DNA of 64,000 nucleotides from the NCBI GenBank assembly GCA_963762565.1, contig CAVXLD010000005.1, forward strand, positions 416,001-480,000. Reading direction: 5' to 3'. Source of the DNA: an uncultured Verrucomicrobiae bacterium. Lineage in GTDB: Bacteria; Verrucomicrobiota; Verrucomicrobiia; Chthoniobacterales; JAFAMB01. Positions 2,138-19,220 of this stretch are shown here, one piece after another. The position numbers and the translations under genes were made by a program. The notes under the pieces were generated by a model. That model did not search any database, was not told the origin of the DNA, and saw only the letters and a program-made list of their open reading frames with translations. Numbering within the stretch: position 1 is the first letter of the stretch; every line of letters starts with the position of its first letter.

Positions 2138-3112
2138 TCATTGCAAATCTCCGACCGACGCGACCAGTTCATTTAATAGCCAACGGATAGTATGGTCTTC
2201 ATCCGAGGTCTGGTGCCAAACCATCTCGATCTCTACGGCAACCGCCGGGTAGGGCGGATCCAGCAAGAAAAGCGGGGCGTTGGCCGCAGCCCACAACGCC
2301 AGCCGGCGTGGTGCGATCGCGACCATGTCGCTCATTTGGAGAAATGAGACAATGGCCGCGAAATTTGACACCGAAACGGTAGCGCGCCCAGTCGGGCTAA
2401 TCTTTCCTTCCTGAAATTCTTGCAAAGCGCGTTCAACCGAAACCAAGTAGCTCCCCTGGCGATCGGCTCCACTCTTGTTCTCTTCAATTAATCGCAGAAC
2501 TATATGCGGAAACACATTTAGCTTTTCTTTTGTTACCTTGCCTCGTGTCAGTGGATGGCGAGCGCGAACCACAATGACCTCATCCTCGCGCAGTAGCGTT
2601 TTGCGACGCGCGCTTTCCGGTAATTTGCTGAATGACCCGATCACGAGATCGGCATGACCTTTCTCAAGTTGCTGAACCGCGTCGATATGATTAGAGGAGA
2701 CGACCTGGAGCTCTAGATTCGGCGTGCTCTTGGCTAACCGTTTAAGCAGCGGCGGAAGAAGAACGACGCAGGCATAGTCTGTCGCTACGATACGAAGCGT
2801 TCGGGGCAGTTCGGCCGGCGCAGAGTTATTTCTTCTTACAGCTAACTCGAGCATTTGGTACGCTTCTCGAACGGCTGAAGCCAACTCAAGGGCGCGTTGA
2901 GTTGGTAGCATTCCGGATCGGCTCGGAGTAAACAGTTCATCTCCGATCGACTGCCGCAGTCTATTTAACGCGTGACTGACCGCCGAAGGGGTAATTGAGA
3001 GGACTTGGCTCGCTTTGACGACGCTACGAAGCTCCATCATTGCATTAAATACCCGAAACAGATTGAGGTCGATCATACGGAGGTAGTCGTTCCCGACATA
3101 ACCTTGACGCAT
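2138..3112 (-). CDS. LysR-family transcriptional regulator
   Basis: IDLNLFRVF...ITPSAVSHALNRLR HTH plus substrate-binding domain; start chosen at MRQGY. Confidence 0.92.
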   Translation of the reverse strand: MRQGYVGNDYLRMIDLNLFRVFNAMMELRSVVKASQVLSITPSAVSHALNRLRQSIGDELFTPSRSGMLPTQRALELASAVREAYQMLELAVRRNNSAPAELPRTLRIVATDYACVVLLPPLLKRLAKSTPNLELQVVSSNHIDAVQQLEKGHADLVIGSFSKLPESARRKTLLREDEVIVVRARHPLTRGKVTKEKLNVFPHIVLRLIEENKSGADRQGSYLVSVERALQEFQEGKISPTGRATVSVSNFAAIVSFLQMSDMVAIAPRRLALWAAANAPLFLLDPPYPAVAVEIEMVWHQTSDEDHTIRWLLNELVASVGDLQ

Positions 3113-3485
3113 TTCGCGATTCTCAGGTATTCCAAGTGCCTGGTTTTTGGGAAACCTTTCCGCTCGGGATACTCCGATTCTGGACGGGGAACTCAGCATT
3201 GTCGTTCAAGACTCCATACTAAGCTTGGCGCTTCAGTTCTAATTTTACCTTAACCGGTGGACTATTCCTAAGGACCTTCCCTTTCTCAATGTCAAATCGA
3301 GTGCCGCGCGGTTCAGTGTAACACAAGACTTCCACATCTCTAGCTGCATCGTAAATGACGGAGGAGTCTGTGACTAAATCAGCTACGAGAAATGGGTGTT
3401 CGCCGATGATCACTCTTTCTTTCTCCTCAATTACTAACAATCCCATGCGCACCTTCGAGCTCATCCAGTCGGAGTTCAATCCCGG

Positions 3486-6400
3486 TTAGTTGCTGACCTC
3501 TTGGAGCTCTCCTTCGGGGCTTGGCCGTGTGGGCGCCTTGGCCCGAGATTTGCGACCAAAGAGTTTCATGATCACGGAAAAGAACACTGGAGTTAAGAAA
3601 ATTCCGAAAAACGTTACCCCGAGCATGCCGGTAAAGACTGTGGTGCCCAGTGCCTGCCGCATCTCCGAGCCCGCGCCTAACGCAATCACTAACGGCCAGA
3701 CGCCCATGCTGAACGCAAACGACGTCATGAGGATCGGGCGCAACCGCAACCGGCAGGCTTCAACTGCGGCTTCATGCCGCTCCACCCCGGCGTCCATCTG
3801 CTGTTTGGCGTATTCCACGATCAGGATCGCGTTCTTACAGGCCAGACCCACCAAGACCACCAACCCGATCTGGGTGAAGATGTTATTGTCCATGCTACGC
3901 AGGAAGACGCCCGAGATGGCGGCCAACAGGCACATCGGCACGACCAGGATGATGGCAGCCGGCAGCGTCCAGCTTTCGTACTGCGCCGCCAGTGCGAGGA
4001 ACACAAACAGCACGCACAACGGGAAAATGTAGACCGCTGAGTTACCGGCGAGTTCCTGTTGTAGCGCCATTTCGCTCCACTCATAACCGAACTGCTTGGG
4101 CAAGTTTTCGGTCGTCATCCGTTGCATGAGATCCATTGCCTGGCCCGAACTGAAGCCTGGTTGCGGGACCGCATTTATGTCTGCCGAGGGGTAGAGATTG
4201 TAGTGCATCACTTTGTCGGGCCCGTTGGTCTCGGTGATGTTGAGCAAAGTGCTCAGCGGCACCATTTCATTGTTCTGGTTGCGGGTATAAAGGCTGCGGA
4301 TCGACTCCGGCCCAAGCCGAAACGCGTTCTCGCCTTGGATGTTGACCTGGTAGACGCGGTTCAGAAAATTGAAGTCGTTCACGTAGGCGGACCCCAGGTA
4401 GCCCTGAAGGGTATCGAAGATCGAGCTGAGCGGCACGCCCAGCGTCTCGGCTTTCCGGCGGTCGATGTCCAGATAGAGCTGGGGCGCCTGCGAACGGAAA
4501 GTGGTGAACGCGTTCATGATCGCCGGCTGAGCGATTGTTTTTCCGACCAGAGCGTCGGTGGCCGCCTGCAGAGCGGGCAGGCCGGCGGCGCGACGGTCCT
4601 CTACCTGCAGTTTCAGGCCGCCTGCGTTCCCGATTCCTTGGACCGGCGGCGGAGGAAATACCATCGCCCGGCCGTCTTGAAGCGTGGCAAAGCGTCGTTG
4701 CACTTCGGCCAGGATGGCAAAACCGTTCTCTTCAGGGTGTTTTGTCCGCTCTTCAAAGGGCGCCAACACAAGAAAAGTGGTGACTGCGTTACTGCGGTTG
4801 GTCCCGTCGAGGCCGGAAAAGCCCGTGAACTCGACTGTGTGGCTGACTCCGGGCACGCTCGAAGCCAGCCGGACCATTTGCTGGCGCATCTCGTCTGAGC
4901 GTTGCAGGGTAGCGCCGTCGGGTAACTGGGCCAGGCCGATCAGATACCCCTGGTCCTGCATCGGGATGAACCCGACCGGGACCGTCTTGAAGCCGAAAAA
5001 GGTGAGTACCAATAACCCCGCGTACACCAGCAGGACCATCGCTGCGACGCGCAAGAGGCGCCGCACGGTCGAGGCGTACGCGCCGGTGGCGGCGTCAAAC
5101 CCCTTGTTGAACAGGCGGAAAAACCAGCCCAGCGCCAGGTCAAGGCCTCGGGCGATCAGGTCTTTTTTCGCGCTTCTTGGCTTCAGTAGCATCGCGGCCA
5201 AGGCCGGGCTCAAGGTCAGAGAATTGAAGGCTGAAATAATCGTCGCGACCGCGATGGTGAGCGCAAATTGGCGGTAGAACTGGCCTACGATGCCGCTGAT
5301 GAACGCCGTTGGGATGAACACCGCGCTCAACACAATCGCAATGGCCATCACCGCTCCACCAACCGTGTCCATGGCTTTGCGCGTCGCTTCCTTAGGGTCC
5401 ATACCGTGCTCGATGTTGTGTTCAACGGCTTCGACCACGACGATGGCGTCGTCGACCACGATCCCGATAGCCAGCACCAAGCCGAATAATGACAGGTTGT
5501 TGAGCGAAAACCCGAACGCGGCCATCACCGCGAAAGTGCCCACCAACGACACTGGCACGGCGACCATCGGGATGAGGGTAGCCCGCCAGGTTTGCAGGAA
5601 CACCAGCACCACGATTAACACCAGAACGACCGCCTCAATCAAAGTGTGGATGACAGCCTCGATCGATTGTTCGACGAACGTGGTAGTGTTGTAAACGATC
5701 TTATACTCCAGGCCCTTTGGAAAACGCTTGGCTAGCTCTTCCATGGCGGCCGACACCCGGTGGGCGGTGGCCACCGCGTTGGCGCCCGGAGTTTGGTAGA
5801 TGACAAGGGCCTGGGAGGGTTTGCCGTCCAGATAGGAAGCCACGCTGTAGTCCCTGGCCCCGAGTTCGACTCGCGCGACGTCCCCCAGGTAAACGAGCTC
5901 GCCCCGGTCGCCATGTTTGAGCAGGATCTGGCGGAATTGCTCGGGTGTGATGAGCCGGCCTTCGGTATTGACGGATAATTCCAGGTTCGTCCCGGGCGGC
6001 GCCGGTTCTGAGCCGAGGCGGCCGGCGGCCACTTGCACGTTCTGGGCTTGAATGGCCTTGACCACGTCATCGGTGGTTAGCTGGCGCGCCCACATCCGGT
6101 CAGGGTCCAGCCACACGCGCATGCTGTACTCGCGAGCCCCGAGCACGACCACATCGCCTACCCCTTCGATACGGTTCAGCACGTCTCGGATCTGCAGGAA
6201 AGCGTAGTTTGAAATATAGGTTTGATCGTAGGTATTGTCCGGGGAGAGCAAGTTCACCACCATCATCAGGTTGGGCGATTTTTTCTTGGTAGTGACACCC
6301 AGTGAGCGAACTTGATCGGGTAGCCTTGGTTGGGCGGTTGCAACCCTGTTCTGAACGAGGTTCTGCGCTGTATCGAGGTTGGTGCCGAGCTTGAACGTCA

Positions 6401-6680
6401 CGGTGAGGGTCATCGTGCCGTCGCTGGTCGATTGGGAGGACATATAGAGCATGTCCTGAACTCCGTTGACCTCCTGTTCGATCGGGGTGGCGACCGTGTC
6501 GGCGATGACCTTGGGGTCGGCGCCCGGATAACGGGCTGTAACCTCGACCGTGGGTGGCACGATGTCCGGGTATTGGGACGTCGGCAGGCCCAAGAGAGCC
6601 AATCCGCCTGCAAGGAGGATGACTAAGGAGAGCACCATCGCAAAAATGGGCCGGTCGATGAAGAAATGAGAGAATTTCAT
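3486..6680 (-). CDS. RND multidrug efflux permease (HAE1, AcrB/MexF-like)
   Basis: 1064 aa; FFIDRPIFA, GIVVDDAIVVVE, KNAILIVE, RLRPILMTS motifs. Confidence 0.96.
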   Translation of the reverse strand: MKFSHFFIDRPIFAMVLSLVILLAGGLALLGLPTSQYPDIVPPTVEVTARYPGADPKVIADTVATPIEQEVNGVQDMLYMSSQSTSDGTMTLTVTFKLGTNLDTAQNLVQNRVATAQPRLPDQVRSLGVTTKKKSPNLMMVVNLLSPDNTYDQTYISNYAFLQIRDVLNRIEGVGDVVVLGAREYSMRVWLDPDRMWARQLTTDDVVKAIQAQNVQVAAGRLGSEPAPPGTNLELSVNTEGRLITPEQFRQILLKHGDRGELVYLGDVARVELGARDYSVASYLDGKPSQALVIYQTPGANAVATAHRVSAAMEELAKRFPKGLEYKIVYNTTTFVEQSIEAVIHTLIEAVVLVLIVVLVFLQTWRATLIPMVAVPVSLVGTFAVMAAFGFSLNNLSLFGLVLAIGIVVDDAIVVVEAVEHNIEHGMDPKEATRKAMDTVGGAVMAIAIVLSAVFIPTAFISGIVGQFYRQFALTIAVATIISAFNSLTLSPALAAMLLKPRSAKKDLIARGLDLALGWFFRLFNKGFDAATGAYASTVRRLLRVAAMVLLVYAGLLVLTFFGFKTVPVGFIPMQDQGYLIGLAQLPDGATLQRSDEMRQQMVRLASSVPGVSHTVEFTGFSGLDGTNRSNAVTTFLVLAPFEERTKHPEENGFAILAEVQRRFATLQDGRAMVFPPPPVQGIGNAGGLKLQVEDRRAAGLPALQAATDALVGKTIAQPAIMNAFTTFRSQAPQLYLDIDRRKAETLGVPLSSIFDTLQGYLGSAYVNDFNFLNRVYQVNIQGENAFRLGPESIRSLYTRNQNNEMVPLSTLLNITETNGPDKVMHYNLYPSADINAVPQPGFSSGQAMDLMQRMTTENLPKQFGYEWSEMALQQELAGNSAVYIFPLCVLFVFLALAAQYESWTLPAAIILVVPMCLLAAISGVFLRSMDNNIFTQIGLVVLVGLACKNAILIVEYAKQQMDAGVERHEAAVEACRLRLRPILMTSFAFSMGVWPLVIALGAGSEMRQALGTTVFTGMLGVTFFGIFLTPVFFSVIMKLFGRKSRAKAPTRPSPEGELQEVSN

Positions 6681-6695
6681 TAGTTGAGCTCCAGG

Positions 6696-8045
6696 TTAAT
6701 CACTTGTCCCGGCGGGCGCCTTACCGTTTGGGGCAGAGTCGCCCTGCCCGTTCTGAGACTGCGATTCTGCCCTGGCGGTCACAATCGTCTCGGACTGGCC
6801 GGCCAGCGATTGATTCATGTCGCCCGGTTGGGCCGTGACCTTGCTGCCCGGGCGGGCATTGACCAAGCCGTTAATGATGACCCGGTCGTCCGGCCCAAGA
6901 CCTCTGCGGACCACGCGCAATCCATCAAAAACCGGGCCGAGTTCCACCGGGCGCACTTGAACGACACTGTTATCATCCACTAACAGCACAAACTTCTGTC
7001 CCTGATCGGTCGCGATGGCCCGATCGGTGATCAGGAGAGCGTCGTGTTTGGGTGTCCCCGCGATTCGGACGCGGACAAAGGCATCGGGGTAAAGAGACGC
7101 ATCCTTGTTTTGGAAACGGCCACGGATCTGAAGAGTACCCGTCGATGCGTTGTAGGTGTTGTCAACGAAATCAATGAGACCTTCGTGCGGAAAGCCTGTT
7201 TCGCCTTCCAATTGGAGATACACCGGCATGGCCGACACCCGCGGGTCTTGGAGTTGGCCGCCTTGGATCTGGTTGTAGTATTTTTGCACTGTCCGTTGGT
7301 CGACGTTGAAGTACGCGTAGATGGGATCAACGCTCACCACTTTTGTAAGGACGGTCGCATCGGTCTGGACCAGGTTGCCTTTGGTAACGAGTTGGCGGGA
7401 AATGCGGCCCTCGATCGGGGATTTGACCTGGGTGAAATCCATGTTGAGCAGGGCCGAGTTTACCGAGGCCTGTGCCTGAGCAAACTTGGCCTCGGCTTCA
7501 TTCCTTTCCGCAACGCTGGTATCGTATTCTTCTTTCGCGGTAACTTTGTTTTGGAACAGCTTTTCCGCCCGGGCGAAATTAGCCAGCTTCAGTTGGCGTA
7601 GTGCCTCGGCGTCCTGCAGATTGGCCTTGGCTTGGTCGAGAACATCCTGGTAAGGACGCGGGTCGATTACGAACAGAACGTCGCCCGGCTTAACCAGTTG
7701 CCCGTCCTTGAAACTGATTTGATCGATGTAGCCACTCACGCGCGGACGGACGTCCACGCTTTCAATAGCCTCGGTGCGTCCGGTATATTCATCCCACTCC
7801 ACGATTTCCTTATGGATGGGCGTTGCGACAGTCACCGGCGGCGGCGGCAGAATCGGCGCCTGCGTAGATGGTTTGCAACCCGTCGACAAAATGCCAAAAA
7901 CGGCAGCCACCCAGCAAACTGGCTTGAAAAATCTTTTCAAAGATTTGGTTAACTTTAATGAAAGGGAACCCGACTCGGTTCTTTCTGAAAAGAACGAGGT
8001 CGAGGCTCGACGAAAAGTGTTCGCGGCTACGGCGATCGGGATCAT
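6696..8045 (-). CDS. RND efflux periplasmic adaptor (MFP) subunit
   Basis: Lipobox-like STGC, VRPRVSGYI, IDPRPY, SPIEGRISR; true start may lie downstream. Confidence 0.93.
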   Translation of the reverse strand: MIPIAVAANTFRRASTSFFSERTESGSLSLKLTKSLKRFFKPVCWVAAVFGILSTGCKPSTQAPILPPPPVTVATPIHKEIVEWDEYTGRTEAIESVDVRPRVSGYIDQISFKDGQLVKPGDVLFVIDPRPYQDVLDQAKANLQDAEALRQLKLANFARAEKLFQNKVTAKEEYDTSVAERNEAEAKFAQAQASVNSALLNMDFTQVKSPIEGRISRQLVTKGNLVQTDATVLTKVVSVDPIYAYFNVDQRTVQKYYNQIQGGQLQDPRVSAMPVYLQLEGETGFPHEGLIDFVDNTYNASTGTLQIRGRFQNKDASLYPDAFVRVRIAGTPKHDALLITDRAIATDQGQKFVLLVDDNSVVQVRPVELGPVFDGLRVVRRGLGPDDRVIINGLVNARPGSKVTAQPGDMNQSLAGQSETIVTARAESQSQNGQGDSAPNGKAPAGTSD

Positions 8046-8197
8046 AGTAGTTTGGAATCTAAACTAAGAAACGAGGATAGGCGGAAGATGCATACCTTTA
8101 TTTGTCTGAAACTGCCCTTTCCTTGTCATTTCGTTGATGAGGTTTATGCGCGTTTGATCTACTGCAGTTTGGAAAAGTGGAGGCGTATGATTTTTGT

Positions 8198-8385
8198 TTA
8201 GTGGATGCATGTAACAGTCTCTGCCATGCCGCCCATCTGCCGCAATTGGCTGAACGCCTACTTTATTTCCTTCTCAAAAGGATTAGGCGCGCCTAACGGT
8301 CAGGCCGCTGTCGTTGCATCTAAACAAATCGTACATCAATCGAGGATTCGGTGGCAGTAATTAGCCGTAAGCTTGCCGTAAGCTT
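8198..8385 (-). promoter_or_regulatory. Conserved composite upstream element, copy A (before RND operon)
   Basis: Shares blocks ATG.RTGTAACAGTCTC, CCGCAATTG, TTCCYTCTCAAAAG, TGCATCT and CAGTAATTAGCCGTAAG with copies near 9.8, 13.7 and 17.0 kb. Confidence 0.8.
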
Positions 8386-8391
8386 GCGGCC

Positions 8392-9756
8392 TCAGTTCAG
8401 CATAACCTCATTCAGTCTTTTCGAACCTGATGAACCGTCGGACGCTGCTCGCGCGCGAATTCGAGTCATCCGGCTGGTTAGCTCTTCGATATCGCGTAAG
8501 GTAATTATCTGCTCGATCTCTCTGGAGAATAAGAGCTCCAGCGTCCAGCCGCTGATTACCCGCAGCTTTTTCGCCAATCGTGGAAGTTTCAGCAAATACA
8601 CTGTTCGCCAAAGGCACCAGGCGATGAAGCCCGAGAACTTAATCCCGAATACCATGGCTACACCCGTTCGATGCCCGATGCTCGCCAATTGTCCCAACGT
8701 TTTAAAGACGAAAGGTGTTGGGGGACGGCCCAGGATCTCGGCTTCGATATTCTTCGCAGCGACCAGCCCCTGCCGCAGTCCGTGTTGTGCCGTTGGCGGA
8801 TGCAACTTTCCGGTGGTTCCATCGGGTACTGCTGCGCAATCACCAGCAGCCCAAAGGCCAGAAACACCAGGAACACGCAGGAATTCGTTTACCAAAACGC
8901 GGCCTCGCTCCTTTTGGTAAGGTAATGAAGCGATAACCGGACTTGGCTTTATACCTGCCGTCCAAATGAGAGTCGAAGCGGGTAGTGATTTCCCGTCGCT
9001 CAATCTGACGAGGGAACCGTCATCGAAGCCTGCTACACCCACACCGGCGATCACTTCCACTTTGCGCTCGCGCAATTTACGTTCAGTGTAATCACCGAGT
9101 TCCTCACCTAATTCCGGCAGGAGAAACTGGCCTGGATGGACGAGAACAACCCGAATCAACTCCTCGCTCAGATCGGGATAATACGTTGCGGCTTCGTGTA
9201 CGAAATCGTTGATAGCGCCAGCGGTTTCTACCCCTGAAAAACCGGCACCGGCAATTACAAAAGTTAACAACTGGCGACGTATGGCAGCATCGTCTCGTAG
9301 ATTGGCTTCTTCCAACAATGCAATGACACGATTGCGCAGGAGCGCCGCATCGCTCAGGCTTTTCATTGTCACGGCCCAATCGCTCAGGCCAGGAAGATCA
9401 AAAAAGTTCGTTTCTGAGCCAGGAGCCAGCAGCAGATGATCGAATTCTACCTCGAAATCGAGCTGCGCCACGCCTCCAGAACAACGAAGCCGGCGCTCGC
9501 TCGGATCAATTGCCTTCACCTCGGCTTGAACAATCTTCACATGCCGGAGGATACGACGGAGGGGATTAACAATATCGTTTGGATTAAGATCTCCCGATGC
9601 CACCTCGTGCAACATCGGCGTGAAAAGAATGAAATTCTCACGACTGATCAGCACTACCTCTATGTCAGGCTCTGCAGCGAGCCGTTTGTCCAAATAGGTC
9701 GCGGCAGCCAGTCCGGCGAATCCGCCACCGGCAATAACGATTTTGATCTTATTCAT
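8392..9756 (-). CDS. ndh: Type II NADH dehydrogenase / FAD-dependent oxidoreductase
   Basis: IVIAGGGFAG, FTPMLHEVA, GAGFSGVE, WAAGDCA, PPTAQH; start at MNKIK. Confidence 0.88.
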   Translation of the reverse strand: MNKIKIVIAGGGFAGLAAATYLDKRLAAEPDIEVVLISRENFILFTPMLHEVASGDLNPNDIVNPLRRILRHVKIVQAEVKAIDPSERRLRCSGGVAQLDFEVEFDHLLLAPGSETNFFDLPGLSDWAVTMKSLSDAALLRNRVIALLEEANLRDDAAIRRQLLTFVIAGAGFSGVETAGAINDFVHEAATYYPDLSEELIRVVLVHPGQFLLPELGEELGDYTERKLRERKVEVIAGVGVAGFDDGSLVRLSDGKSLPASTLIWTAGIKPSPVIASLPYQKERGRVLVNEFLRVPGVSGLWAAGDCAAVPDGTTGKLHPPTAQHGLRQGLVAAKNIEAEILGRPPTPFVFKTLGQLASIGHRTGVAMVFGIKFSGFIAWCLWRTVYLLKLPRLAKKLRVISGWTLELLFSREIEQIITLRDIEELTSRMTRIRARAASDGSSGSKRLNEVMLN

Positions 9757-9761
9757 CTTTG

Positions 9762-9937
9762 TTAGGTGGATGCTATGTAAATAGTTCTCCGCCATGCGGG
9801 CGATCTCCCGCAATTGGCGGGATGCCTAGATAAACTCCCTCTCGAAAGGGTTAAATGCGCTTGAGGTCATGTCGCTGCGGTGCATCTGAGGAATTCTTGT
9901 ACCATTAGAGGACTCTGCGACAGTAATTAGCCGTAAG
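9762..9937 (-). promoter_or_regulatory. Conserved composite upstream element, copy B (before ndh)
   Basis: CTCCGCCATGC..CCGCAATTGG..CCCTCTCGAAAGGG..TGCATCT..CAGTAATTAGCCGTAAG. Confidence 0.75.
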
Positions 9938-11094
9938 TCCTCTGCGGTTAGGGCGAAAGGCGCACTGGGCGTCCAAATAGGCCAGATAAGAGGTAGCCAG
10001 TTGCCGCCTTCGCGTCGGCCCGGCTGCGTTATGCCTGGTTCAGGCTGATCTGATCGTGAGAAACGGGACCGTTGGCAGGCTGATTAACACACGCGGCAAT
10101 GGCAAAGCAGCACCCAATCAGAAAAGAATGTGAGCCTTGTGATGAAAGAATTGAAGTGGGTTCCGTATCGCGAAGCGGTTAAAGATGTTAGCACTAGGAA
10201 TGCTAAAATGACGAGATAAGCCTTCTCTAGGTCCGCCACGGTGCGCCCAGATGCTTTCTTTGTCCTTCCAGCTCATCGTTTCTTTGCTTTCTGCTCCGCC
10301 TTCCATTGCACATAGGCCGGGTTTACTCGGCTCTGGCAGTTTGGATCCATTTTGGGCGGTATGTCCTTCGGCGTGGATGCGGCCATGATGGGGCCGATGA
10401 TTAGGATTACTGGTATTAGTGGGTTCATAGTTCAAAAGGATCTTTCTTCGTTTTTGCCGCGTTCCGTGGGCGCCCTTCGGGCACCCCAGGGAAACGTCAC
10501 AAATACAAATTTAGAGCTGTAGGCGCGGCACAACCGTGAGAATTGTCCGGCGCTGACACACGATCCTTCGCCAACCCGTTTAGGCCGTAAAGTTTCCGGA
10601 ATAAGGCCCACCATTTGGCTCGACGTAGGCGTCGCTGCTCTGCGCGATGTAAGATTTCACCGATTAATAATGGATACTGCGAAAGTGTTTTGATTTGGTA
10701 AGTATGGACTGTTCGGTTCATATTTCTTCAATTGGCAGTAAGTCGTTTTTCGCCTTTGGCTCCAACGATTTGGTGCTTGATCGTGCCCTGCGTTATTGGC
10801 GACCACGGCGGTCCCGCTCGGTGAAAAATGGTGAGTTGGGGCGGAGGTGTGTTTGCGTACAACACGACCTCATTTTTATTGTGTCGCTCTAGTAAGCCAC
10901 CTCCGCCCCTTTCCCCCCACACGTCAGTTGCGAATTTCAATAGAGCTTACTATCAGGAACTGTTAGCGCTATTGGTGGGATGCGGGATTTTTCTACCTCT
11001 CAGAAGGGTTAGTTCGGCGCGCGACTCGGCATGGCGGTTGTCGTCAGTCACAACTGTGCGGGTTCCAAGATGTAGGTGACAAAGGATTACCGCC

Positions 11095-11320
11095 GTAGCG
11101 GGTTTGCATGAAAGACTAGGCCCTTAGGCCTGGGGAACACCCGTGCCCAAAAACCCGACCTCTAGAGGCGGCAGGGTGCGTATAAAATGTCCCGCTCGGG
11201 AAAAACTATGGCTGATTGGTTAAGAACGTGAGTTTGGCCGCCCTTTCAGGGCGGTTTTCATTCCGTATGTAACCCAGGGCTAAAGCCCTGGGCTGTGATG
11301 TATGCCGCTTCGCGGCAAAC
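11095..11320. repeat. REP-like palindromic cluster
   Basis: Palindromes CCGCCCTTTCAGGGCGG, CCCAGGGCTAAAGCCCTGGG and GCCGCTTCGCGGC, with degenerate inverted partners near 11120-11175. Confidence 0.6.
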
Positions 11321-11479
11321 GCGAGAGGGCAGATTTCGCAATCAGTGTCAGCCATTTTTGTTCAAGTTCTTGCGTGAACACACTGGTCGAGCGACGCGGA
11401 AAGCAAACTGCTAGTTTTCCTAACCGGAACGTGGAATCTACCCCAACCTGCCGTCGCTCCCTCGAGCGCTAAATTAGCG

Positions 11480-12337
11480 TCACGACCCGTGGTTCTTCGT
11501 GCGCCAGCTGTACTTGGGATTGTATCCGAGGATTTTTATCGCTTTCTCAATCGACAGCAGGGTTTCGTGTTGCCCGAAAGACCGCTTATGAGGAACACTC
11601 GGGAAAACCTCGTTTAACAATGACTCATTGTCCCGTTCCATTACTGTGTCGGCATTCGCGATGATGAAAACTTCCGCCCCTTTGATGGTCGATTCTAGGG
11701 AAAGCCGAACCGCTTGAGCTGCATCCCGGGCATCAACGTAACCCCAGAAGTTCCATTTGCGTTTTCGGGCATCATCCTGAAAACCGGGGAACCTGGAATA
11801 ATCGTGGGGTTCCATGATGTTCGAAAAACGCAGGCCGATAATCTTCAACTGCGGATCCCAACGGCAAAACTGCTTTGCCATTTCTTCGCCCATCAGCTTG
11901 GAAAGAGAGTAGGCCCATTCCGGTCGTCCGGGATACTCTTCATCGACCGGGACGTAGGGCGGGGGCGTATCAAAAGGCAAACCGAGCACGGTCTCGCTCG
12001 AGGCCCAAACCACATTTTTAATCCCAAGTTGTCGCGCTGCTTCAAACACATTGTAGGTGCTGATGGTGTTTGTGGCGAAGGTTACTGCGTTCGTCGCCAA
12101 CCCTGGAGCAGGGATCGCAGCCAGGTGTACGATCCCGGTCACGTTGTGGATCCGGTCGTCAATTTGAGAAAACGCGGCCACTGTCTGGCCGAAATCAGTA
12201 AGCTCAACCCGGCTGAATGGTACCGGCACATCCGGCGGCCGGACCAGATCGACACTGGCTACCTCGTAGTGATAAGCCAGCAATTCCGAGATACAGGCTC
12301 GCCCGGCCTTTCCGCTGCCACCGGTTACAATAATCAT
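11480..12337 (-). CDS. NAD-dependent epimerase/dehydratase (extended SDR)
   Basis: VTGGSGKAG, HLAA, ASSE, YSLSK. Confidence 0.92.
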   Translation of the reverse strand: MIIVTGGSGKAGRACISELLAYHYEVASVDLVRPPDVPVPFSRVELTDFGQTVAAFSQIDDRIHNVTGIVHLAAIPAPGLATNAVTFATNTISTYNVFEAARQLGIKNVVWASSETVLGLPFDTPPPYVPVDEEYPGRPEWAYSLSKLMGEEMAKQFCRWDPQLKIIGLRFSNIMEPHDYSRFPGFQDDARKRKWNFWGYVDARDAAQAVRLSLESTIKGAEVFIIANADTVMERDNESLLNEVFPSVPHKRSFGQHETLLSIEKAIKILGYNPKYSWRTKNHGS

Positions 12338-12451
12338 GGGGCACTCAAGCGTTCGGCATTGGCTGTGGCAAACGGTTTCTGCTATAAAGATCTCGCTCCT
12401 ACGGAGCTAGTGATTCGCTTTGCTTGGGGATCCCGTGTTTTTGCCGGTTAG

Positions 12452-12826
12452 TTAAATTGCCTCCGGGCGTCGGCTAGTACGGATCAACCGGCATAAGCTT
12501 ACCTCATAATCTCGCCGCCAACGCACGTTTCGGACGACGTCTAAGGCAATTAACATACAGCAGGTGAACAACCAGGCTGCTCCAAGAACGATGCCGACAG
12601 GCCAACTAAGCAAAAGCAGGATGCTTATTACGACGACCAGAGCATAACCAAAGGCCCCTCTACCCAGAATTTCTCTCGGTCGACGTCGCCATAGCCATTC
12701 GGTGCGCAGACTCTCCGAGGGGTTTACCGGCGGGTAACCAAAATATCTGTGGATCTGCCAGGGTGGGACTTCCGGAAATCGCCATACGTCCTCACTCTGA
12801 AAGTCTGTCCAAAAGTTCGATCGCAT
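12452..12826 (-). CDS. Hypothetical membrane protein
   Basis: 124 aa with a two-helix hydrophobic hairpin; co-oriented with neighbours. Confidence 0.55.
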   Translation of the reverse strand: MRSNFWTDFQSEDVWRFPEVPPWQIHRYFGYPPVNPSESLRTEWLWRRRPREILGRGAFGYALVVVISILLLLSWPVGIVLGAAWLFTCCMLIALDVVRNVRWRRDYEVSLCRLIRTSRRPEAI

Positions 12827-12936
12827 CCGCTTCTTCGTTTATTAGCCGTCATTTGCAAACGCCGTACAAAGAAGAACCAGCGAGATGCAAGAAAGCGTTA
12901 GTAATGTTGCCATGTATTTTCGGCCTAATTAACTGC

Positions 12937-13554
12937 TTACTGCTTACTGACTGCTGGATTGACGTCCGCAGCGCGGTTGCTCAACTCGGAGGCGGCGGTG
13001 TACGCGGCACGAAAAAAGGAATAGCAGATGGACAACTCGTGCTGATCTCTGGGCGTGTATACGACAAGGGCGCCAGGTGGCATTAGTCCATGAGAAGAAA
13101 GGTAGTGAGGCTCGGCCCAACCGCGCACTATCGCCCAGTGAGCACATACCAATGGCAAAGCCAAGTAGATGGTCGGTGCGCCTATTAGGACGCGGCCAAA
13201 CTCTCTCGGACTGATAAATGCAGCGACATTGTACCCTGCGGCGGTTTCCGCTAATCGGAGAGGGATTGTGTTTGAAGAACTATTGTTCGGTGGATTGCTT
13301 TCGACGTAAGGCCAACTCAAAACCGCGGTGGTTAACTGATCCAGGTGCTGCGGATCACCATGTCCGTTGCACTGAATATGCAGTGGTCCACTTAAAGTCG
13401 CGGGCCTTAGCCCTTTTCTACGAGGTAGTTCGTGAAAATCGAACCCTGTCGCGCCATAGCGAAGCGGCGGCGGAGGTTCGCAACTGCAGTCAATATCTCC
13501 GCCTGATTCAGCGCGAGTTGCAAGCTTGTTCATCGCCCTGGGAGCAAGTCCCAC
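12937..13554 (-). CDS. Luciferase-domain (DUF5519-like) protein
   Basis: LPRRKGLRP..PLHIQ..REF..LALP..RGWAEPH..VVYTPRD pattern; start uncertain. Confidence 0.65.
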   Translation of the reverse strand: MGLAPRAMNKLATRAESGGDIDCSCEPPPPLRYGATGFDFHELPRRKGLRPATLSGPLHIQCNGHGDPQHLDQLTTAVLSWPYVESNPPNNSSSNTIPLRLAETAAGYNVAAFISPREFGRVLIGAPTIYLALPLVCAHWAIVRGWAEPHYLSSHGLMPPGALVVYTPRDQHELSICYSFFRAAYTAASELSNRAADVNPAVSKQ

Positions 13555-13659
13555 GCGCCATGGGTCGTGCTTTTTGCGGATTGTTCTGTTGAGATGGATT
13601 GCTCTGGATTCATGTTGAAATCTCCTTTTTATTAATTGGTGGCGTAAGGATGTTTGTTA

Positions 13660-13770
13660 ATTAGTATGCGTGTAACAGTCTCTGACATGCTGTCCAAGGT
13701 GCCGCAATTGCCAGGAGGCTTACATTGTTTCCCTCTCAAAAGAGCTAGCGCGCCTCAGGGTTAGGCCGCT
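13660..13770 (-). promoter_or_regulatory. Conserved composite upstream element, copy C (distal part degenerate)
   Basis: TAGTATGCGTGTAACAGTCTCTG..GCCGCAATTGCC..TTTCCCTCTCAAAAGAGCTAG..AGGCCGCTG. Confidence 0.75.
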
Positions 13771-13819
13771 GCCACGGCGGCCGAAGCGGGACTCTATGGT
13801 CCAAAAATAGTAATGTCCG

Positions 13820-14302
13820 TCACATGGTTTGACGGTTTGAAAAATTGACCGGCGTCAATGCGGACAATTCTTCTCGGCAAATCTCGGCAAATTCTCGTAA
13901 CGGATCCAGTGCACCACTCTCCATCATGCTGCGCAACTCTGGCAGTGTCTTGTTTGGCAAGACATAAGTGTCGAGGATCATGCGAACGAACTTGTCGGCC
14001 CGCTCAGCGATGCGGGGATCGGAGACGACCCTCATTTTGTTGATCAATGCGTAAAGGCTTACCAGTGGCGCGAGGGCGGTTTCATCGTGAATCAGAGCGT
14101 CGACGTAGGACTTGGATGCCTCTTCAATGAATTGTTGGTAAAGCTCTTGCCGCCTTGTCTTCTCTTGCAAGAGCCATTGTACATTCGCCTGTTGATGCTG
14201 TGTAACCCAGGCCGCGGCAAAAGTCATCAATCCTCCGATTACGGATCCGGCCAAAGCGGCCAAGGCGGTGATATAGGCGGGATTCATGGCGCGTGCGGCC
14301 AT
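13820..14302 (-). CDS. Hypothetical protein with N-terminal TM helix
   Basis: YITALAALAGSVIGGL followed by a helical domain; follows the 14310 gene by 7 bp. Confidence 0.7.
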   Translation of the reverse strand: MAARAMNPAYITALAALAGSVIGGLMTFAAAWVTQHQQANVQWLLQEKTRRQELYQQFIEEASKSYVDALIHDETALAPLVSLYALINKMRVVSDPRIAERADKFVRMILDTYVLPNKTLPELRSMMESGALDPLREFAEICREELSALTPVNFSNRQTM

Positions 14303-14309
14303 CCTGAAT

Positions 14310-15884
14310 TCATTTCGAATCGTCCGCCACAGATCCGGACTGGGTCGCGTTCGGCATGTCTGGATCTTTCAGCCGCACTAACAGCCAGGTCTGCGTTGTA
14401 TCCGTATCAAAATGCACCAGGCAACTCGCGACGTCCTGAGTCAAATTCTGCAGGCCGGCCTCGATCACGGTATTATTCGAGCCGATTTTCCAGGCTACCC
14501 GCTGCGTTTTCTTGTCTACTTGGCCGGAGATTGGCGATACCTGTCCGCTCAACAGGTTTTTATAGGCGCCGGTGACGACTCCATCTTTGTCGATAGAGAT
14601 TTGGAAGAACATATAGGCGTCACCCTTTTCTTCCTGAACCATTGCCCAGACTCCAAGCGGCAGGTATTGGGCCTGCTCGCCTTTTTCGGGCGGCACTGGC
14701 GCCGGCGGCTGTTCCTTTGAAGTATTCGCCAAATCAACGGCCTGTTGTGAATACTCCTTGGCGCTCGCCACCCGTTTTCCGTCAACGTAAACGTCGTCGC
14801 CCTCATAGGTCACGTTCACGCCGTAGTCGTAGCTTCGAGAGCGGCCAGAATCGTGGCTTCCAGAGTTGCCGTAATCGTAGCTTCCAGAGCTGCCGTTGCC
14901 ATAGCTTTCGGAGTTGTCGTATGCGCTGTCTAAGGCCAGCCACGTCGCAGCGGTGGCGTACGTCGCTGCTCCCCACCACCAGTATTTTTCGGCGTAACTC
15001 CCGTATTTGTCGGCGTAACGCCAGTAATTGCCGTAATCCCGGCCGGAATAACCGCCGTAGTCCTTCCACCAGTTCGAGCTGAAGTAATTGTCAAGGCTAT
15101 TCCGAGTATTGTCTGTGACCTCAATCGCTCGATTATCCCGATAGTTCTGAACATTATTCTTGTAATCGTTCCACTCGGGCCGGTTAAAGCTGCTTGCTAC
15201 ATTCCGATTATTTCGGAACTCACTGATGTTATTCCAATCTTTGGCACGGTTCGCCTGAAAACCCGCCAGTTTGCCCTGAGTCTGCCCACTCCAATTTTCC
15301 CAAAACTGCTGGTTAGCAAGTGGCTCTGGCGCTCTGTTTCCTGGTTCGCCAGGGCCTTTCCCTGAAAGATCAGGAAATCCCTTGCCCTGCGGTCCTGGTC
15401 CCGGCTGCTTACCTTGCGCAATTGAGGGTAGAACAGATCCGTTTCCTTTCGGAAGGGATTGAATTTTCGATGGCAATTGCAGTCGGTTATTCCCGCCGCC
15501 CCCAAGCTTGCTGTTTGGAACCAAGCCTCCCGTCCGGCTAGAGCCTGGGCGGGTAATGTTTGGGATGTGCGGTTTGGGCCCGCCACCCGCAAGCTTGCCG
15601 TTTGGAGCCAAGCCTCCAATCCGGCTAGGTCCTGGCCGGGAAATATTCGGTGCGTTCGAGAAATTCGGCGGCCTTGAGATACCGGGTCCACCGCCGATAC
15701 CGGGTCCACCGCGGAAGCCCCCTCCAGCCACCGAGGGCGGCATGAATCCGCCGGCAGGTGGACCCATGCTGGGCGGCGGCCCTGGCGGGGGACCTGGGAA
15801 AGCTATCGCATCCGTCCCTATCAGCAGCAAAATGGTCCCGACCACGAGAGCCGATATTTTGAGTAGCTTCAACTCCATAGTCAT
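14310..15884 (-). CDS. Secreted Pro/Gly-rich protein ('mu-protocadherin-like' family seen in PVC bacteria)
   Basis: Signal peptide, P/G-rich repeats, Trp/Tyr-rich segment, C-domain PLGVWA...VDKKTQRVAW...WLLVRL. Confidence 0.75.
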   Translation of the reverse strand: MTMELKLLKISALVVGTILLLIGTDAIAFPGPPPGPPPSMGPPAGGFMPPSVAGGGFRGGPGIGGGPGISRPPNFSNAPNISRPGPSRIGGLAPNGKLAGGGPKPHIPNITRPGSSRTGGLVPNSKLGGGGNNRLQLPSKIQSLPKGNGSVLPSIAQGKQPGPGPQGKGFPDLSGKGPGEPGNRAPEPLANQQFWENWSGQTQGKLAGFQANRAKDWNNISEFRNNRNVASSFNRPEWNDYKNNVQNYRDNRAIEVTDNTRNSLDNYFSSNWWKDYGGYSGRDYGNYWRYADKYGSYAEKYWWWGAATYATAATWLALDSAYDNSESYGNGSSGSYDYGNSGSHDSGRSRSYDYGVNVTYEGDDVYVDGKRVASAKEYSQQAVDLANTSKEQPPAPVPPEKGEQAQYLPLGVWAMVQEEKGDAYMFFQISIDKDGVVTGAYKNLLSGQVSPISGQVDKKTQRVAWKIGSNNTVIEAGLQNLTQDVASCLVHFDTDTTQTWLLVRLKDPDMPNATQSGSVADDSK

Positions 15885-16837
15885 TGAGAAAATCCAGGTT
15901 GTGGCTTTGAGGTGGTGCGCTGCACCACGATCTTTGGAACTGATGGCTGGGGTTCACGATCCAGAGCGCGATTCTGCGATTCCCAAGTGAACTTATTGTC
16001 GTCGACCTTGGTTAGTACGTTTTCGGCTGTGGAGCGGCTGCCGTCCGGCAACACGTTGGAAGCCCGGATCAACCAATGCCCATCCTCATACGACCAGCTC
16101 GATTCGCCGAAGCCGCCGTTACTATCAAAGATCCAGGAACGAATCTGCTGGCAGTCTGGATCCCAGCCGACAATCTCCCAGCCCTCTGTCTCGGCTTCCT
16201 CACGCTTGAGTTTGAATGTGCGCACCAGAAAGTTTCTGTCGCCTGCCCATTCGACCTTCGATTCGACCGTCTGGTCCGCATCTTTATTCTCCCAGTTTCC
16301 GATTAACCATTTAAGCGCTTCTAACTGGGAACTGGCACTGGGAGCCGGCGCCGCCGTCTGCGTCAATTGGGAGATTTGCCAGCGATCAGCTCTTTTGACC
16401 AGAACGGCTAAATATCGAGTCGCGTCGATGGCACCGTTGGCTGCTGTCACAATTGCAACCCCACGATTCACCTGCACATCTGGTGTCAGCGATTTTACTT
16501 CCTCCATCGTGATGGTGATTTTGGCACCCGGAATTGCCTGAAAGTTCTCGGCAAAGAGTTTTTCCATTTCGCCACGGCCTTTTGTTTCTACGCCGTCTTG
16601 ATCGATGTAATCTATATCCTCGGCATAAAAGGCTGCCAGAGTCTTTGCATCGCCTCGGTTATAAGCTTCCTGGTACTTGCGGAATTGATCTTGGGCTGCC
16701 TGATATTCTGGCGATGATTGAATGGCCACCGGCTGTGCCTTCTGAGCACCCAGTGACGAATTTTCGGCTGCCATACTGGTACTACCGAGTGAACATGCCA
16801 TGGCCATAGCGGTCACGGCTAACGATGTTATCTTCAT
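15881..16837 (-). CDS. Secreted SgcJ/EcaC (DUF4440, NTF2-like) protein
   Basis: Signal peptide MKITSLAV; AYNRGDAKTLAAFY, LKWLIGNW, IRSWIFDSNGGFG; 4-bp overlap with downstream gene. Confidence 0.82.
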   Translation of the reverse strand: MKITSLAVTAMAMACSLGSTSMAAENSSLGAQKAQPVAIQSSPEYQAAQDQFRKYQEAYNRGDAKTLAAFYAEDIDYIDQDGVETKGRGEMEKLFAENFQAIPGAKITITMEEVKSLTPDVQVNRGVAIVTAANGAIDATRYLAVLVKRADRWQISQLTQTAAPAPSASSQLEALKWLIGNWENKDADQTVESKVEWAGDRNFLVRTFKLKREEAETEGWEIVGWDPDCQQIRSWIFDSNGGFGESSWSYEDGHWLIRASNVLPDGSRSTAENVLTKVDDNKFTWESQNRALDREPQPSVPKIVVQRTTSKPQPGFSQ

Positions 16838-16911
16838 TTTTTGGTTCGCTAGAGGTTTGTGCCTGGGTGGAATCTCCATTTTTTTGTTAACTGCACGCGA
16901 GAAATTATTGT

Positions 16912-17097
16912 TAGTCACATGCGTGTAACAGTCTCCGCCATGCCGCCCATCAGCCGCAATTGCCGGAACGCTCATATTATTTCCCTCTCAAAAGGGCTAG
17001 ATGCGGCTAGATGGGCTTCAGGGTCAGGTCTGCATCTAGAGAACGGTGCGTGAATCAAGGACTCGGCGGCAGTAATTAGCCGTAAGCTGTCCGTAAG
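16912..17097 (-). promoter_or_regulatory. Conserved composite upstream element, copy D (before SgcJ operon)
   Basis: Full set of blocks including the CCGTAAG direct repeat with 11-bp period. Confidence 0.8.
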
Positions 17098-17192
17098 CCT
17101 GCATTTCTCAGCAGTCTGAGCGCCGGGGAGGGGGCCTAACTAACTAAACCGCAATCAGCGGTGGCTTCGCCCAAGAGTGTGAGATTTGCGGG
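17098..17192. mobile_element. MITE-like element, copy 1
   Basis: Ends CCTGCATTTCTCA ... TGAGATTTGCGGG; internal similarity to 30680-30793. Confidence 0.65.
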
Positions 17193-19004
17193 TTAGTTAG
17201 CCGCGAGATTCAATCTTCTCAAAAGGCTTGTGAATCGGTGCTCGCTCCGGAGCGGCTGAAAGAATGGCTCGACTGCCAGCAGGTTGACGAAATTTGCCTT
17301 GTGATCGATCGCTTCATCGAGGCGTTGAAATGCTAGATCGAAATCTTTCAGTCCGATCGCAGCCAAAGCTTCTGCCAGAGGAGTGATATATTGGCTCGCT
17401 GCGAGTCGATGAAGTTCTTCAACGCATTTCTCGGCCTGCGGCCGCTTACCTCGCCGCGCGTACGTTGCGGCTAGCAAGCCTATTTCTAAGGGAAACCGCG
17501 TATGATAAAGGCACTCTACGGCGGCGTCATACTCTTGCTGCTGGAAATGCAACAGTCCCTTGTAAAATCGTGCTTCCGGATAGTCGCGATCCAAGGCAAA
17601 CGATTTTTCAAGATGCTCGGCAGCTAATCGATGGTCGCCTTTAACGTAGTGAAGGTAGGCCAGCCGTGCGCAGTCGCTGGCGGACAGGGGATCCAATTCG
17701 GTAGAGCGGCGGAGCGCTGCCTCTGCTGCTGGAATCTTGCCAAGGCACAGCAAAGCCATGCCAAGGAAAAAGTGAGCGGGCGCGTGGCCGGGTTGTAGTT
17801 CCAGCGCGCGATCGTACAGCTTCAACGCTTCATCCCAACGATGCTCAAACCAGCCACGAATTCCGCCCAGGATCGTGCACGTTTCTCCCGAGTGGGGATC
17901 GAGAGCATAGCCGCGCTCGGCATTCGCTTTAACTTCGGGATACACGTCACGCCCGGACACCACGCCGAAAAGAGAAAGAAAGCCGGCGGCCGCAGCCATG
18001 CCGCTATAGGCGAGAGCGTAATCCGGAAATGCGTGAGTGAGCTCCCGCAGCTGCTCCAGTGCCGCGCGCAGTGTTTCAGGAGACTGTTGGTGAATGAGGA
18101 ATCGGGCTCGTAAGTACCTGGTATAGGCGTCGAGATCGCCGACGAACGGGTGTGCTCGTGTTCGTGCCGGCGGCGGGTGAACTCGCAGCAACGCGGCAAC
18201 GGATTGGGCTATCTCCTCTTGAACTGCAAACACATCCTTTAGTTCGCGGCGGAACACTTCTGACCAGAGCTCATAGCCGGATTCAACCCGGATCGCCTGC
18301 GCCGTGATCCGCAGTTTTTCGCCCGCTTTCCTGACGCTTCCTTCGATAACGACATCGGCATTGAGACGCCGGCCGGCTTCGCGGATATCGACAGACATTC
18401 CCTTAAACTGGAATGCCGACGACCGCGCGACGACCTTCAATCCCGTGATGTGCGTGAGCGAGTTGATGATTTCTTCGCTGATCCCGTCGCAAAAATAGTC
18501 TTGCTCCGGCTCTGGGCTCATGTTCACGAAAGGCAGCACTGCAACGGACGCACCTATTTGGACTGCAGCGCCGATTTCTTGGTGTGGCTTTTGAGGCTCT
18601 GCGTCTAACCAGCGAAAAATGGGTACGTAACTGCCGGGCCGCAGGCCGATCAGGACAGGGTCATTTCTCCCCGGACCTTCGTAATATTCCTTCAACTTCG
18701 TTCTAAGGCGGCGAGCCTCAACCCGCACAATGGCGTCAACGTTCGGATCGTATTTGGACGAGCGGTCAAACACCTCCATTGCGATCGAGAACTCTTTAAG
18801 ACAGTCGAGATCTCGGCAAAGGGTCCGATTCACAACGTGCGCGAGGAACCGGCACAGCCGAGCCGAGGGAATGAACTTTGGGCTATCCACAATTCGCATC
18901 AATTGTTCGCGAACAGCAGTCTCCGGCACCGCGTCCACCGTAGTTTTGCCAGACATTTCTGTTGATGACGAGCGAGCCATGGGGGTCGAGCCTGGATCGC
19001 TCAC
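17193..19004 (-). CDS. Putative one-component regulator: N-terminal wHTH-like domain, TolB-like domain, TPR repeats
   Basis: LKEFSIAMEVF..DAIVRVEARRLRTKLKEYY; SVAVLPFVNMS..YFCDGISEEII; TPR-like C-terminus. Confidence 0.8.
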   Translation of the reverse strand: MSDPGSTPMARSSSTEMSGKTTVDAVPETAVREQLMRIVDSPKFIPSARLCRFLAHVVNRTLCRDLDCLKEFSIAMEVFDRSSKYDPNVDAIVRVEARRLRTKLKEYYEGPGRNDPVLIGLRPGSYVPIFRWLDAEPQKPHQEIGAAVQIGASVAVLPFVNMSPEPEQDYFCDGISEEIINSLTHITGLKVVARSSAFQFKGMSVDIREAGRRLNADVVIEGSVRKAGEKLRITAQAIRVESGYELWSEVFRRELKDVFAVQEEIAQSVAALLRVHPPPARTRAHPFVGDLDAYTRYLRARFLIHQQSPETLRAALEQLRELTHAFPDYALAYSGMAAAAGFLSLFGVVSGRDVYPEVKANAERGYALDPHSGETCTILGGIRGWFEHRWDEALKLYDRALELQPGHAPAHFFLGMALLCLGKIPAAEAALRRSTELDPLSASDCARLAYLHYVKGDHRLAAEHLEKSFALDRDYPEARFYKGLLHFQQQEYDAAVECLYHTRFPLEIGLLAATYARRGKRPQAEKCVEELHRLAASQYITPLAEALAAIGLKDFDLAFQRLDEAIDHKANFVNLLAVEPFFQPLRSEHRFTSLLRRLNLAAN

Positions 19005-19200: not shown

Positions 19201-19220
19201 GCTTACGGCAACTTACGGCA
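19201..19220 (+). promoter_or_regulatory. CTTACGG direct repeat in the divergent promoter region
   Basis: GCTTACGGCA-ACTTACGGCA; same heptad as the distal part of copies A, B and D. Confidence 0.7.

Follow-up and report, generated by a model that had tools for sequence, protein, structure and literature searches.

The window analyzed here is a 64,000-nucleotide stretch from an uncultured Verrucomicrobiae bacterium of the order Chthoniobacterales (assembly GCA_963762565.1, contig CAVXLD010000005.1, positions 416,001 to 480,000), and it carries a repeated non-coding element upstream of several unrelated genes. We observed that this element has a core with a conserved sequence, a constant orientation and fixed spacings, and that it shows a −10-like hexamer recovered in held-out sites, a linkage to genes of NarL-type regulators, and mosaic pairings of promoter and gene. 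The reading that we prefer, with a probability of about two in three, is that the core is an activator-dependent promoter of the sigma70 type, switched on by a NarL-type regulator from the same island, and that recombination has placed copies of it before unrelated genes and exchanged them.

A preliminary description of the window had reported four copies (A to D) with a common block order, on the minus strand and 5' of genes. Their coordinates, order, strand and placement were all confirmed, although a divergent fifth copy, E, had been overlooked. The copies and their parts are as follows.

8192-8394, minus strand: copy A, full length (by sequence and profile match; the promoter roles are predicted), with heptads at 8355-8382, the distal box at 8272-8283, the proximal site at 8248-8259, the −35 hexamer TTGCGG at 8240-8245, a predicted −10 hexamer GAGACT at 8216-8221 and a predicted start near 8209.
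9757-9945, minus strand: copy B, with one heptad and ATTACTG at 9918-9937, the box at 9840-9851, the proximal site at 9816-9827 and the −35 at 9808-9813.
10944-11013, minus strand: copy E, a divergent family member (E-value of 2e-7 with the wider-family model, of whose training set it is a member), with the box at 10998-11009, the −35 TAGCGC at 10966-10971 and, 16 bp further, the −10 TAAGCT at 10944-10949.
13654-13771, minus strand: copy C, core only, with the box at 13734-13745, the proximal site at 13710-13721, the −35 at 13702-13707 and the −10 GAGACT at 13677-13682, 19 bp from the −35.
16905-17104, minus strand: copy D, full length, with heptads at 17070-17097, the box at 16986-16997, the proximal site at 16962-16973, the −35 at 16954-16959 and the −10 GAGACT at 16930-16935.

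A profile built from the four named copies was searched against the genome (6.1 Mb in 15 contigs). It returned the four training copies (E-values of 1e-48 to 1e-59) and a weak fifth match at about 10967-11041 (E-value of 0.021), and no further copy was seen below an E-value of 0.7. When copy D alone was used as the blastn query, A, B and C were recovered at E-values of 4e-12 to 4e-34; since copies in other genomes were recovered as well, the repeat is not due to chance. The held-out counterpart of copy E in another genome (G004:C465) likewise has TAAGCT at 16 bp.

The distal part of copy C, earlier called degenerate, is not recognizably homologous to those of A, B and D (41-51% identity), and C is therefore treated as core only. 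Copy B does have a single heptad as described, and GAGAACTATTTACA stands where GAGACTGTTACA would be expected; its activity is uncertain, as its −10 region is altered. The statement that the spacers diverge while the blocks persist was only partly true. Among nine full-length copies, identity is 84% in the −35/−10 spacer and 83% in the heptad block, and the sole segment that drops, to 68%, is the stretch just upstream of the palindrome. Terminal inverted repeats were indeed absent (the 35-nt ends share exact matches of 3-5 nt at most).

The weak matches of this first model covered only its left half. When these were aligned, we observed the palindrome, an A/T tract, CAA and then a T(A/G/T)GCG(A/G) hexamer. 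A matrix made from them revealed a new site in the same genome, C14:158431, with a score of 21.5 (the best score in the reversed genome was 16.8). Here TAGCGG, 17 bp and TAGGAT stand directly before the membrane-fusion gene of a second RND operon. We then built model R2, which spans only the box through the −35 hexamer and leaves out the −10. At E < 0.001 it matched 41 sites, spread over 14 of the 43 family genomes; outside the family, it gave one partial match (E-value of 8e-4) in 150 other genomes of the class.

The −10 region could thus be examined in sites held out from the model. TAnnnT occurred 16-18 bp after the −35 in 17 of 23 held-out sites (E-values up to 0.011), in 11 of them at exactly 17 bp, against a background of 2.1% in the genome and 2.7% in the flanks. 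Two more held-out sites had GATAAT at 17 bp, with a G at −12 as in GAGACT. Judged by these letters, the wider site family is a sigma70-type promoter layout, with the −35 and −10 lying 16-18 bp apart. Of 43 host tRNA upstream regions, 15 have this layout, each with TTG (random 70-mers, 5.5%); TTGC starts and one GATGCT as the −10 occur among them. Among the close copies, L013 carries TAGACT as the −10, while L093 keeps GAGATT and loses GTTACA. A promoter scan in the E. coli style missed the copies (it gave 3 sites where 6.5 were expected), its threshold being too strict for these boxes. A sigma54 promoter was also considered, as rpoN is present in the genome, and was rejected: the rule for such promoters is GG-N10-GC, and TGGCAGAGACTGTTAC gives GG-N10-TA.

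Upstream of the −35, the 31 divergent sites share the symmetric core ACYC-NTTC-GRGT, at a gap of 25 bp (20 sites) or 26 bp (11 sites). A proximal degenerate site, ACYC-GTTC-YGCC, ends 2 bp before the −35, and its fourth base is C in 31 of 31. Assuming a standard transcription start, the predicted centers of the two sites fall near −66.5 or −67.5 and near −43.5, and one base further in the 18-bp copies of the window. The predicted minus-strand starts of copies E, C and D are near 10937, 13670 and 16923. The palindrome CCCTTTTGAGAGGG singled out in the preliminary description is still a likely activator site, but it is a variant of the symmetric core ACYC-N4-GRGT of the wider family. The multi-input promoter proposed there is supported as regards promoter-like DNA and TTGCGG as the −35, with the CTTACGG half being optional; the −10 box, the second site beside the −35 and two further sites on other contigs were missing from it.

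On our preferred reading, a phosphorylated dimer of the NarL-type regulator of the island would bind the distal palindrome ACYC-N4-GRGT (center at about −66.5 to −68.5). It would assist the binding of a second dimer at the weaker site, which abuts the −35 (center at about −43.5 or −44.5), and the bound regulator would recruit RNA polymerase. In this sub-lineage the −35 TTGCGG appears near the housekeeping form of the host and the −10 GAGACT appears weak, and the distal CTTACGG repeat would act as an optional second input.

The candidate regulators lie in the same window.

28478-30019, plus strand: REC-GAF-HisKA_3 histidine kinase, the candidate sensor.
31274-31981, plus strand: NarL-type response regulator 1, a candidate activator.
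32200-32856, plus strand: NarL-type response regulator 2, with the recognition helix SEHTAKAHVK, the best local candidate activator.

We observed that the response regulators encoded close to the sites fall into a single NarL-type group, which includes both the 31274 and the 32200 regulators and whose best solved relative is NarL; the two base-contacting lysines of NarL are kept in most members of the clade. Genes of this clade lie within 10 kb of 11 of the 41 sites, and the clade is present in 13 of 14 site-bearing genomes as against 16 of 29 others (p = 0.013, with kin not independent). The HisKA_3/NarL cassette of the island flanks 6 of 35 close-form loci, and an orthologue of the 32200 regulator directly adjoins a copy in L024. 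Close orthologues of this regulator also occur in G020, G028 and G021, where no close-form copy was found, so that its pairing with the element is not tight. The NarL-type genes, which had been named earlier as candidates, fit the core best. The 17193 gene, named beside them, flanks one of the 35 loci and is at most a candidate for the optional heptads.

A second repeated site, CTGTACYAWRGACAGTAG, which has a palindromic core, was seen at 28407, 30237 and 31005 (plus strand) and also at C1:871099. In the window it precedes the kinase, a receiver gene and the NarL pair, and these sites are conserved in G020, G021, G022, G028 and G038. With 4 occurrences in the genome and 0 in the reversed control, it is likely a separate input, possibly an autoregulatory one.

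We further examined the spread of the close form. Clear blastn copies (E-value of at most 1e-13) were present in 5 of 100 related genomes, all of the same family. A sequence-pattern search found the close form in 5 of 42 family genomes and in 0 of 358 other genomes of the order, and viral contigs gave 0 matches to the element. The pattern scan of metagenomes yielded 36 loci, of which 28 were true copies (several being repeats of one organism); the other 8 were discarded as chance matches, 7 having no profile match and L040 a weak one. The named carriers are Chthoniobacterales or Verrucomicrobiota bins, and also one 3.4-kb contig in a bin labelled Acidobacteriaceae.

Although it lies outside the search pattern, the palindrome was kept in 27 of the 28 true copies, while the CTTACGG heptads were kept in only 5, and the left edges of the copies formed a nested series. 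These observations establish the stretch from the palindrome to TTACAC, of about 80 bp, as the conserved unit. The unit of about 180 bp originally proposed did not hold, since most copies in other places lack the CTTACGG/CTAATTACTG half, and it is the core of about 80 bp that is probably functional. All the identifiable downstream genes were co-oriented with their copies (several contigs stop too early to judge). They include genes for membrane-fusion proteins (MFP), ndh, SgcJ-like and PF17648 proteins, DUF3016 with MFS, an AEC transporter, phosphoketolase, a glgX fragment before a DACNV-domain gene, a thioredoxin-like protein and an acyltransferase.

To estimate constraint, copy A was compared with the copy that precedes the orthologous MFP gene in L016. 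The distal part was 91% and the core 92% identical, and the four-fold sites of the MFP genes 66%. As the element is more conserved than these sites, it is probably under selection. Between copy D and L054 the core was 88% identical, the distal half 68% and the four-fold sites 72%. Copy A was closer to copies of other genomes (92%) than to B, C and D (69-85%), so the window copies are not the result of a recent amplification in place. Copies before different genes were up to 97% identical (L016 and L054). In L050 the ndh gene is 95% identical to the gene after copy B, yet its promoter resembles A (86%) more than B (73%), and the break in similarity falls at the first codons. From such comparisons, unrelated genes appear to have received and exchanged copies of the promoter; recombination between copies, together with duplication and deletion in a plastic island, would be the simplest account of the mosaics. 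A tree of the copies was drawn without support values and was used only beside the pairwise identities. Two copies on one 7.8-kb contig (L038/L039) share an upstream palindromic sequence and a 5' leader and have different genes behind them (SgcJ-like and AEC transporter), and a DDE_3 (IS630-like) transposase adjoins one of the two.

Several observations weigh against a NarL-switched sigma70-type promoter. The GAGACT of copies A, C and D stands at 18-19 bp and, while its A and T are kept, the T at −12 is replaced by G; copy B has no matching −10 hexamer at 16-18 bp. TAnnnT was absent from 6 of the 23 held-out sites, and orthologues and related genomes are among these sites, whose lack of independence makes the nominal probability too strong. 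The metagenome pattern favored copies near the consensus. TGGC and GTTACA are conserved around the −10, which the promoter model does not account for. Contigs from one soil RNA run, covering 8186-8373 and 9699-9849, reach upstream of the predicted starts, which could be due to read-through or to DNA. As for the regulator, 30 of the 41 sites lack a NarL-clade gene within 10 kb (many of the contigs being short), 16 genomes carry the clade without a strong site, and each genome has several paralogues, any of which might be the cognate regulator.

The same promoter might instead answer to the FixJ-type (27496-28113) or LysR (2138-3199) regulator, both of which are encoded in the island, or to another trans-acting factor. 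LysR promoters combine a strong site near −65 with a weak one near −35, but LysR sites follow the rule T-N11-A and the symmetric core here is A-N10-T by column counts. FixJ-like genes were within 10 kb of 0 of the 41 sites, neither the FixJ nor the LysR gene of the island flanks any of the 35 element loci, and the co-occurrence of FixJ was uninformative (13 of 14 versus 22 of 29 genomes; p = 0.18). We consider such a regulator improbable. A structured leader RNA or riboswitch, which the preliminary description had offered as its alternative, would fit with copies that are always 5' of same-strand genes. Copy D alone folds at a z of −2.24, which is weak; two small hairpins have a pairability of about 90%, and 6 of 100 column shuffles reached the sense consensus fold, again a weak signal. 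Covariation did not bear this out, since 0 of the 11 pairs in the two hairpins had changed on both sides among 30 distinct copies, with a score below the shuffled mean. The RNAalifold covariation term was unfavorable (+0.17, with many G-U pairs), and a divergent alignment of 23 sequences gave no structure on either strand. Several copies begin right after divergently oriented genes and so leave no room for an upstream promoter. Rfam gave no match to the copies at E-values up to 10 (7500-18000) and none at the gathering score in 8 related loci. With covariation and Rfam both negative, we give very little credence to an RNA.

As little weight falls on the possibility that the copies are a neutral residue of segmental duplications, or a small mobile element with no regulatory role. 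In favor of this, the island is mosaic and rich in fragments, copy B has decayed, the gene after C is out of frame, and the window copies are clustered within 9 kb. A neutral leftover, however, would not be expected to show identity above the synonymous level, a palindrome retained while its flanks change, or the fixed spacing and the held-out −10 signal. The absence of terminal repeats, the low copy number and the constant orientation argue against both versions. The random position and orientation of a miniature inverted-repeat transposable element, which had been named earlier as a refuting outcome, was not seen, the copies being clustered and co-oriented with genes. It is also very unlikely that the element is a dedicated recombination socket first and a promoter second, with cassettes inserted as at an integron attC. 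Such a socket would account for the sharp right edge after TTACAC, where new genes or gene fragments are joined (L014, L024, L044 and L049), for an RYYYAAC-like start that provides the ndh stop codon in L018, L023 and L034, for short tandem repeats of the 3' tail in L030, L033 and L054, and for the swap in L050. The left edges, however, are nested and variable, and the divergent family holds the promoter geometry without shared ends. No integron integrase scored above the cut-off in the genome (TIGR02249; best 78 versus 265 bits), the core lacked an attC-like end-to-end fold (as tested on the L016 copy), and ordinary homologous recombination with deletion can explain the mosaics.

The distal heptads, which repeat at periods of 11 and 10 bp, have a possible partner next to copy D.

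17193-19004, minus strand: TPR protein with a predicted winged-helix-like N-terminus, a weak candidate binder of the optional heptads.
19202-19218, plus strand: a stand-alone CTTACGG-N3-CTTACGG, upstream of a receiver-domain gene and beside the divergent 17193 gene.

In two other genomes, the similarity to the 19202 promoter starts exactly at the double heptad (a 5' conservation edge). Across the family, the counts of the heptad pattern outside orthologous loci were like those of the reversed control. The N-terminus of the 17193 protein was modelled as three helices and a hairpin (pLDDT of 66). Foldseek with this N-terminus returned nothing at an E-value of 0.001 or less, and OmpR/PhoB-type DNA-binding domains were frequent among its weak structural matches (Z of 4-5, below the trust level). 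These matches faintly hint that the 17193 protein might supply a second input through the heptads.

The genes behind the five copies, and the right end of the island that holds them, are listed below.

3486-8045, minus strand: unit after A, with an RND membrane-fusion gene (6696-8045) and an AcrB-family pump (3486-6680).
8392-9756, minus strand: unit after B, a type II NADH dehydrogenase-like gene (ndh; Pyr_redox_2 and NDH2_C).
10497-10721, minus strand: first open reading frame (ORF) after E, a 74-aa protein without a Pfam match, with short relatives behind other family sites (L154 and L148).
12937-13613, minus strand: unit after C, a PF17648 (Luciferase domain) gene, Pfam E-value of 8.7e-6.
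14310-16837, minus strand: unit after D, with a SnoaL/DUF4440 (SgcJ-like) exported protein (15881-16837) and a 524-aa protein without a Pfam match.
33530-33572, plus strand: right boundary of the island, a 43-bp exact copy of the 3' end of tRNA-Lys(CTT).

The gene after C had been called luciferase-like and does match the Luciferase domain, but its 5' end is out of frame: in comparison with an intact relative in L047, the likely start (ATG at 13613) is not in frame with the remainder. A second tiny ORF follows copy E (about 10270-10430, minus strand), and the tiny ORFs after E recur behind other family sites (L154, L148 and L104; L014, L024 and L044).

All five copies lie inside an island of about 50.6 kb (C5:398885-449572), bounded on the left by tRNA-Lys(CTT) at C5:398885-398957. 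Further degenerate copies of the tRNA-Lys region were seen downstream (C5 480264-480336 and 569243-569323), which suggest tandem islands. Inspection of the translations in the left part of the island showed no integrase-like ORF of at least 150 aa; ORFs there are, as we read their translations, presumably phosphoketolase, acetate kinase, alcohol dehydrogenase and glycogen enzymes. Two genomes of another genus carry the FixJ-like protein of the island at 98-99% identity, which points to horizontal spread.

Other features of the window were also noted. An Acido-Lenti-1-like hairpin repeat at 11273-11317 (plus strand) scored 34.8 bits against a gathering score of 37, and it occurs on many soil contigs with unrelated flanks. 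A four-helix 23S_rRNA_IVP/bAvd-like gene (26987-27442, plus strand) lies inside the kinase-FixJ cluster and is conserved in G022. A short repeat (38 nt, 87%) at 17162-17199 and 30740-30800 marks the two ends of the regulatory block and is possibly a scar of rearrangement. Beyond the island, from 36544 to 63733, there are large ORFs that we take, from their repeats and sizes, to be of the polyketide synthase/non-ribosomal peptide synthetase (PKS/NRPS) kind. A phosphopantetheinyl transferase at 35425 (confirmed) lies near them, and a 99%-identical repeat pair (43134-43433 and 46305-46604, 3171 bp apart) lies among them.

Among known systems, the E. coli NarL promoters offer a close comparison. 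According to PMC7419079 and PMC10853779, NarL activates yeaR from −43.5 and ogt from −44.5 and −77.5, and from −67.5 in an engineered ogt promoter. These promoters share with the element a NarL-type regulator (whose base-contacting lysines, PMC10853779, are mostly kept here), a sigma70 promoter, an inverted-repeat site beside the −35 and a second site upstream, with matching predicted positions; the two sites are 23-24 bp apart here and not 33 as in ogt. The candidate kinase is REC-GAF-HisKA_3 rather than NarX, and there are no nitrate genes. NarL sites have a 7-2-7 heptamer arrangement, whereas the core ACYC-N4-GRGT is 2 bp tighter by inspection of column counts, so that the element would work like a NarL promoter without being a NarL site. 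The E. coli NarL regulon proper was rejected on this spacing and on the score of the regulator (167 bits versus a NarL cut-off of 250).

DevR/DosR of M. tuberculosis, a NarL-subfamily regulator, also uses a primary site and a weaker, closely packed cooperative site overlapping the −35 (PMC3029386). The box sequence, phylum and gene set differ, and cooperativity in our element would be by analogy. The putative mobile promoters of Nijveen, Matus-Garcia and van Passel (2012) are very similar non-coding sequences before unrelated genes of one genome, also shared by different genera; they are not known insertion sequences or RNAs and are mostly pairs with no assigned regulator (PMC3575422). That study takes at least 80% identity over at least 50 nt before non-paralogous genes of one genome, and the present element fits this concept, as A and D are 85% and C and D 82% identical over about 80 nt. 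Copy A lies further upstream of its gene than the −150 to −50 window used there. The present element differs from those families: five of its copies share one island, about ten different genes stand behind it, its architecture is resolved, a regulator can be proposed and one swap is visible.

We also examined which genes stand first behind the sites of the wider family. These encode RND fusion proteins, malic enzyme, an oxalate-decarboxylase bicupin, an aquaporin, PF17648 proteins, small or exported proteins and, in our own reading, presumably a TatA-like protein. The same loci also hold pyruvate oxidase, lactate dehydrogenase, fumarase, formate dehydrogenase and FUSC exporters. An exported protein of about 177 aa with no Pfam match is the first gene behind the site in four genomes (L104, L142, L147 and L149). 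Since the targets include RND pumps, malic enzyme, oxalate decarboxylase, aquaporin, ndh, phosphoketolase and the AEC transporter, they suggest organic-acid or redox stress as the signal, which is a guess; acid stress in particular is a tentative choice. In the EvgA acid-response regulon of E. coli (yfdXWUVE and ydeP), a LuxR/NarL-type regulator likewise controls acid- and oxalate-related targets (PMC3720670). A YfdV-like transporter follows one of our copies (its match is below the cut-off) and a YdeP-type gene is in one site-bearing locus. This is an analogy only, as the regulator is distant from EvgA (79 bits versus a cut-off of 251). No oxalyl-CoA decarboxylase was identified; the thiamine pyrophosphate enzymes are PoxB-like or acetolactate-synthase-like.

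A more far-reaching idea, which we hold to be doubtful, is that soil Chthoniobacterales have built a stress regulon through the exchange of cassettes, the duplicated promoter of 80-190 bp serving as the homology arm by which genes are plugged in behind a NarL-type switch. If true, this would amount to an integron-like gene capture without an integrase, spreading between genera on tRNA-Lys islands.

The literature listings that were searched, whose coverage mostly leaves out subscription journals, gave no description of the motif or of the regulon. Together, these studies have led us to conclude that this is an undescribed regulon of a known mechanistic kind, with clear promoter reuse; as the class of mechanism is already known, the surprise is limited. 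Its Chthoniobacterales hosts are abundant and mostly uncultured soil Verrucomicrobia, for which the element gives a site model, predicted starts and a shortlist of regulators. It is a clear natural case of the reuse of a whole promoter, in which about ten unrelated genes are preceded by one module and a swap can be seen at the start codon, and through it the movement of mobile promoters becomes directly testable.

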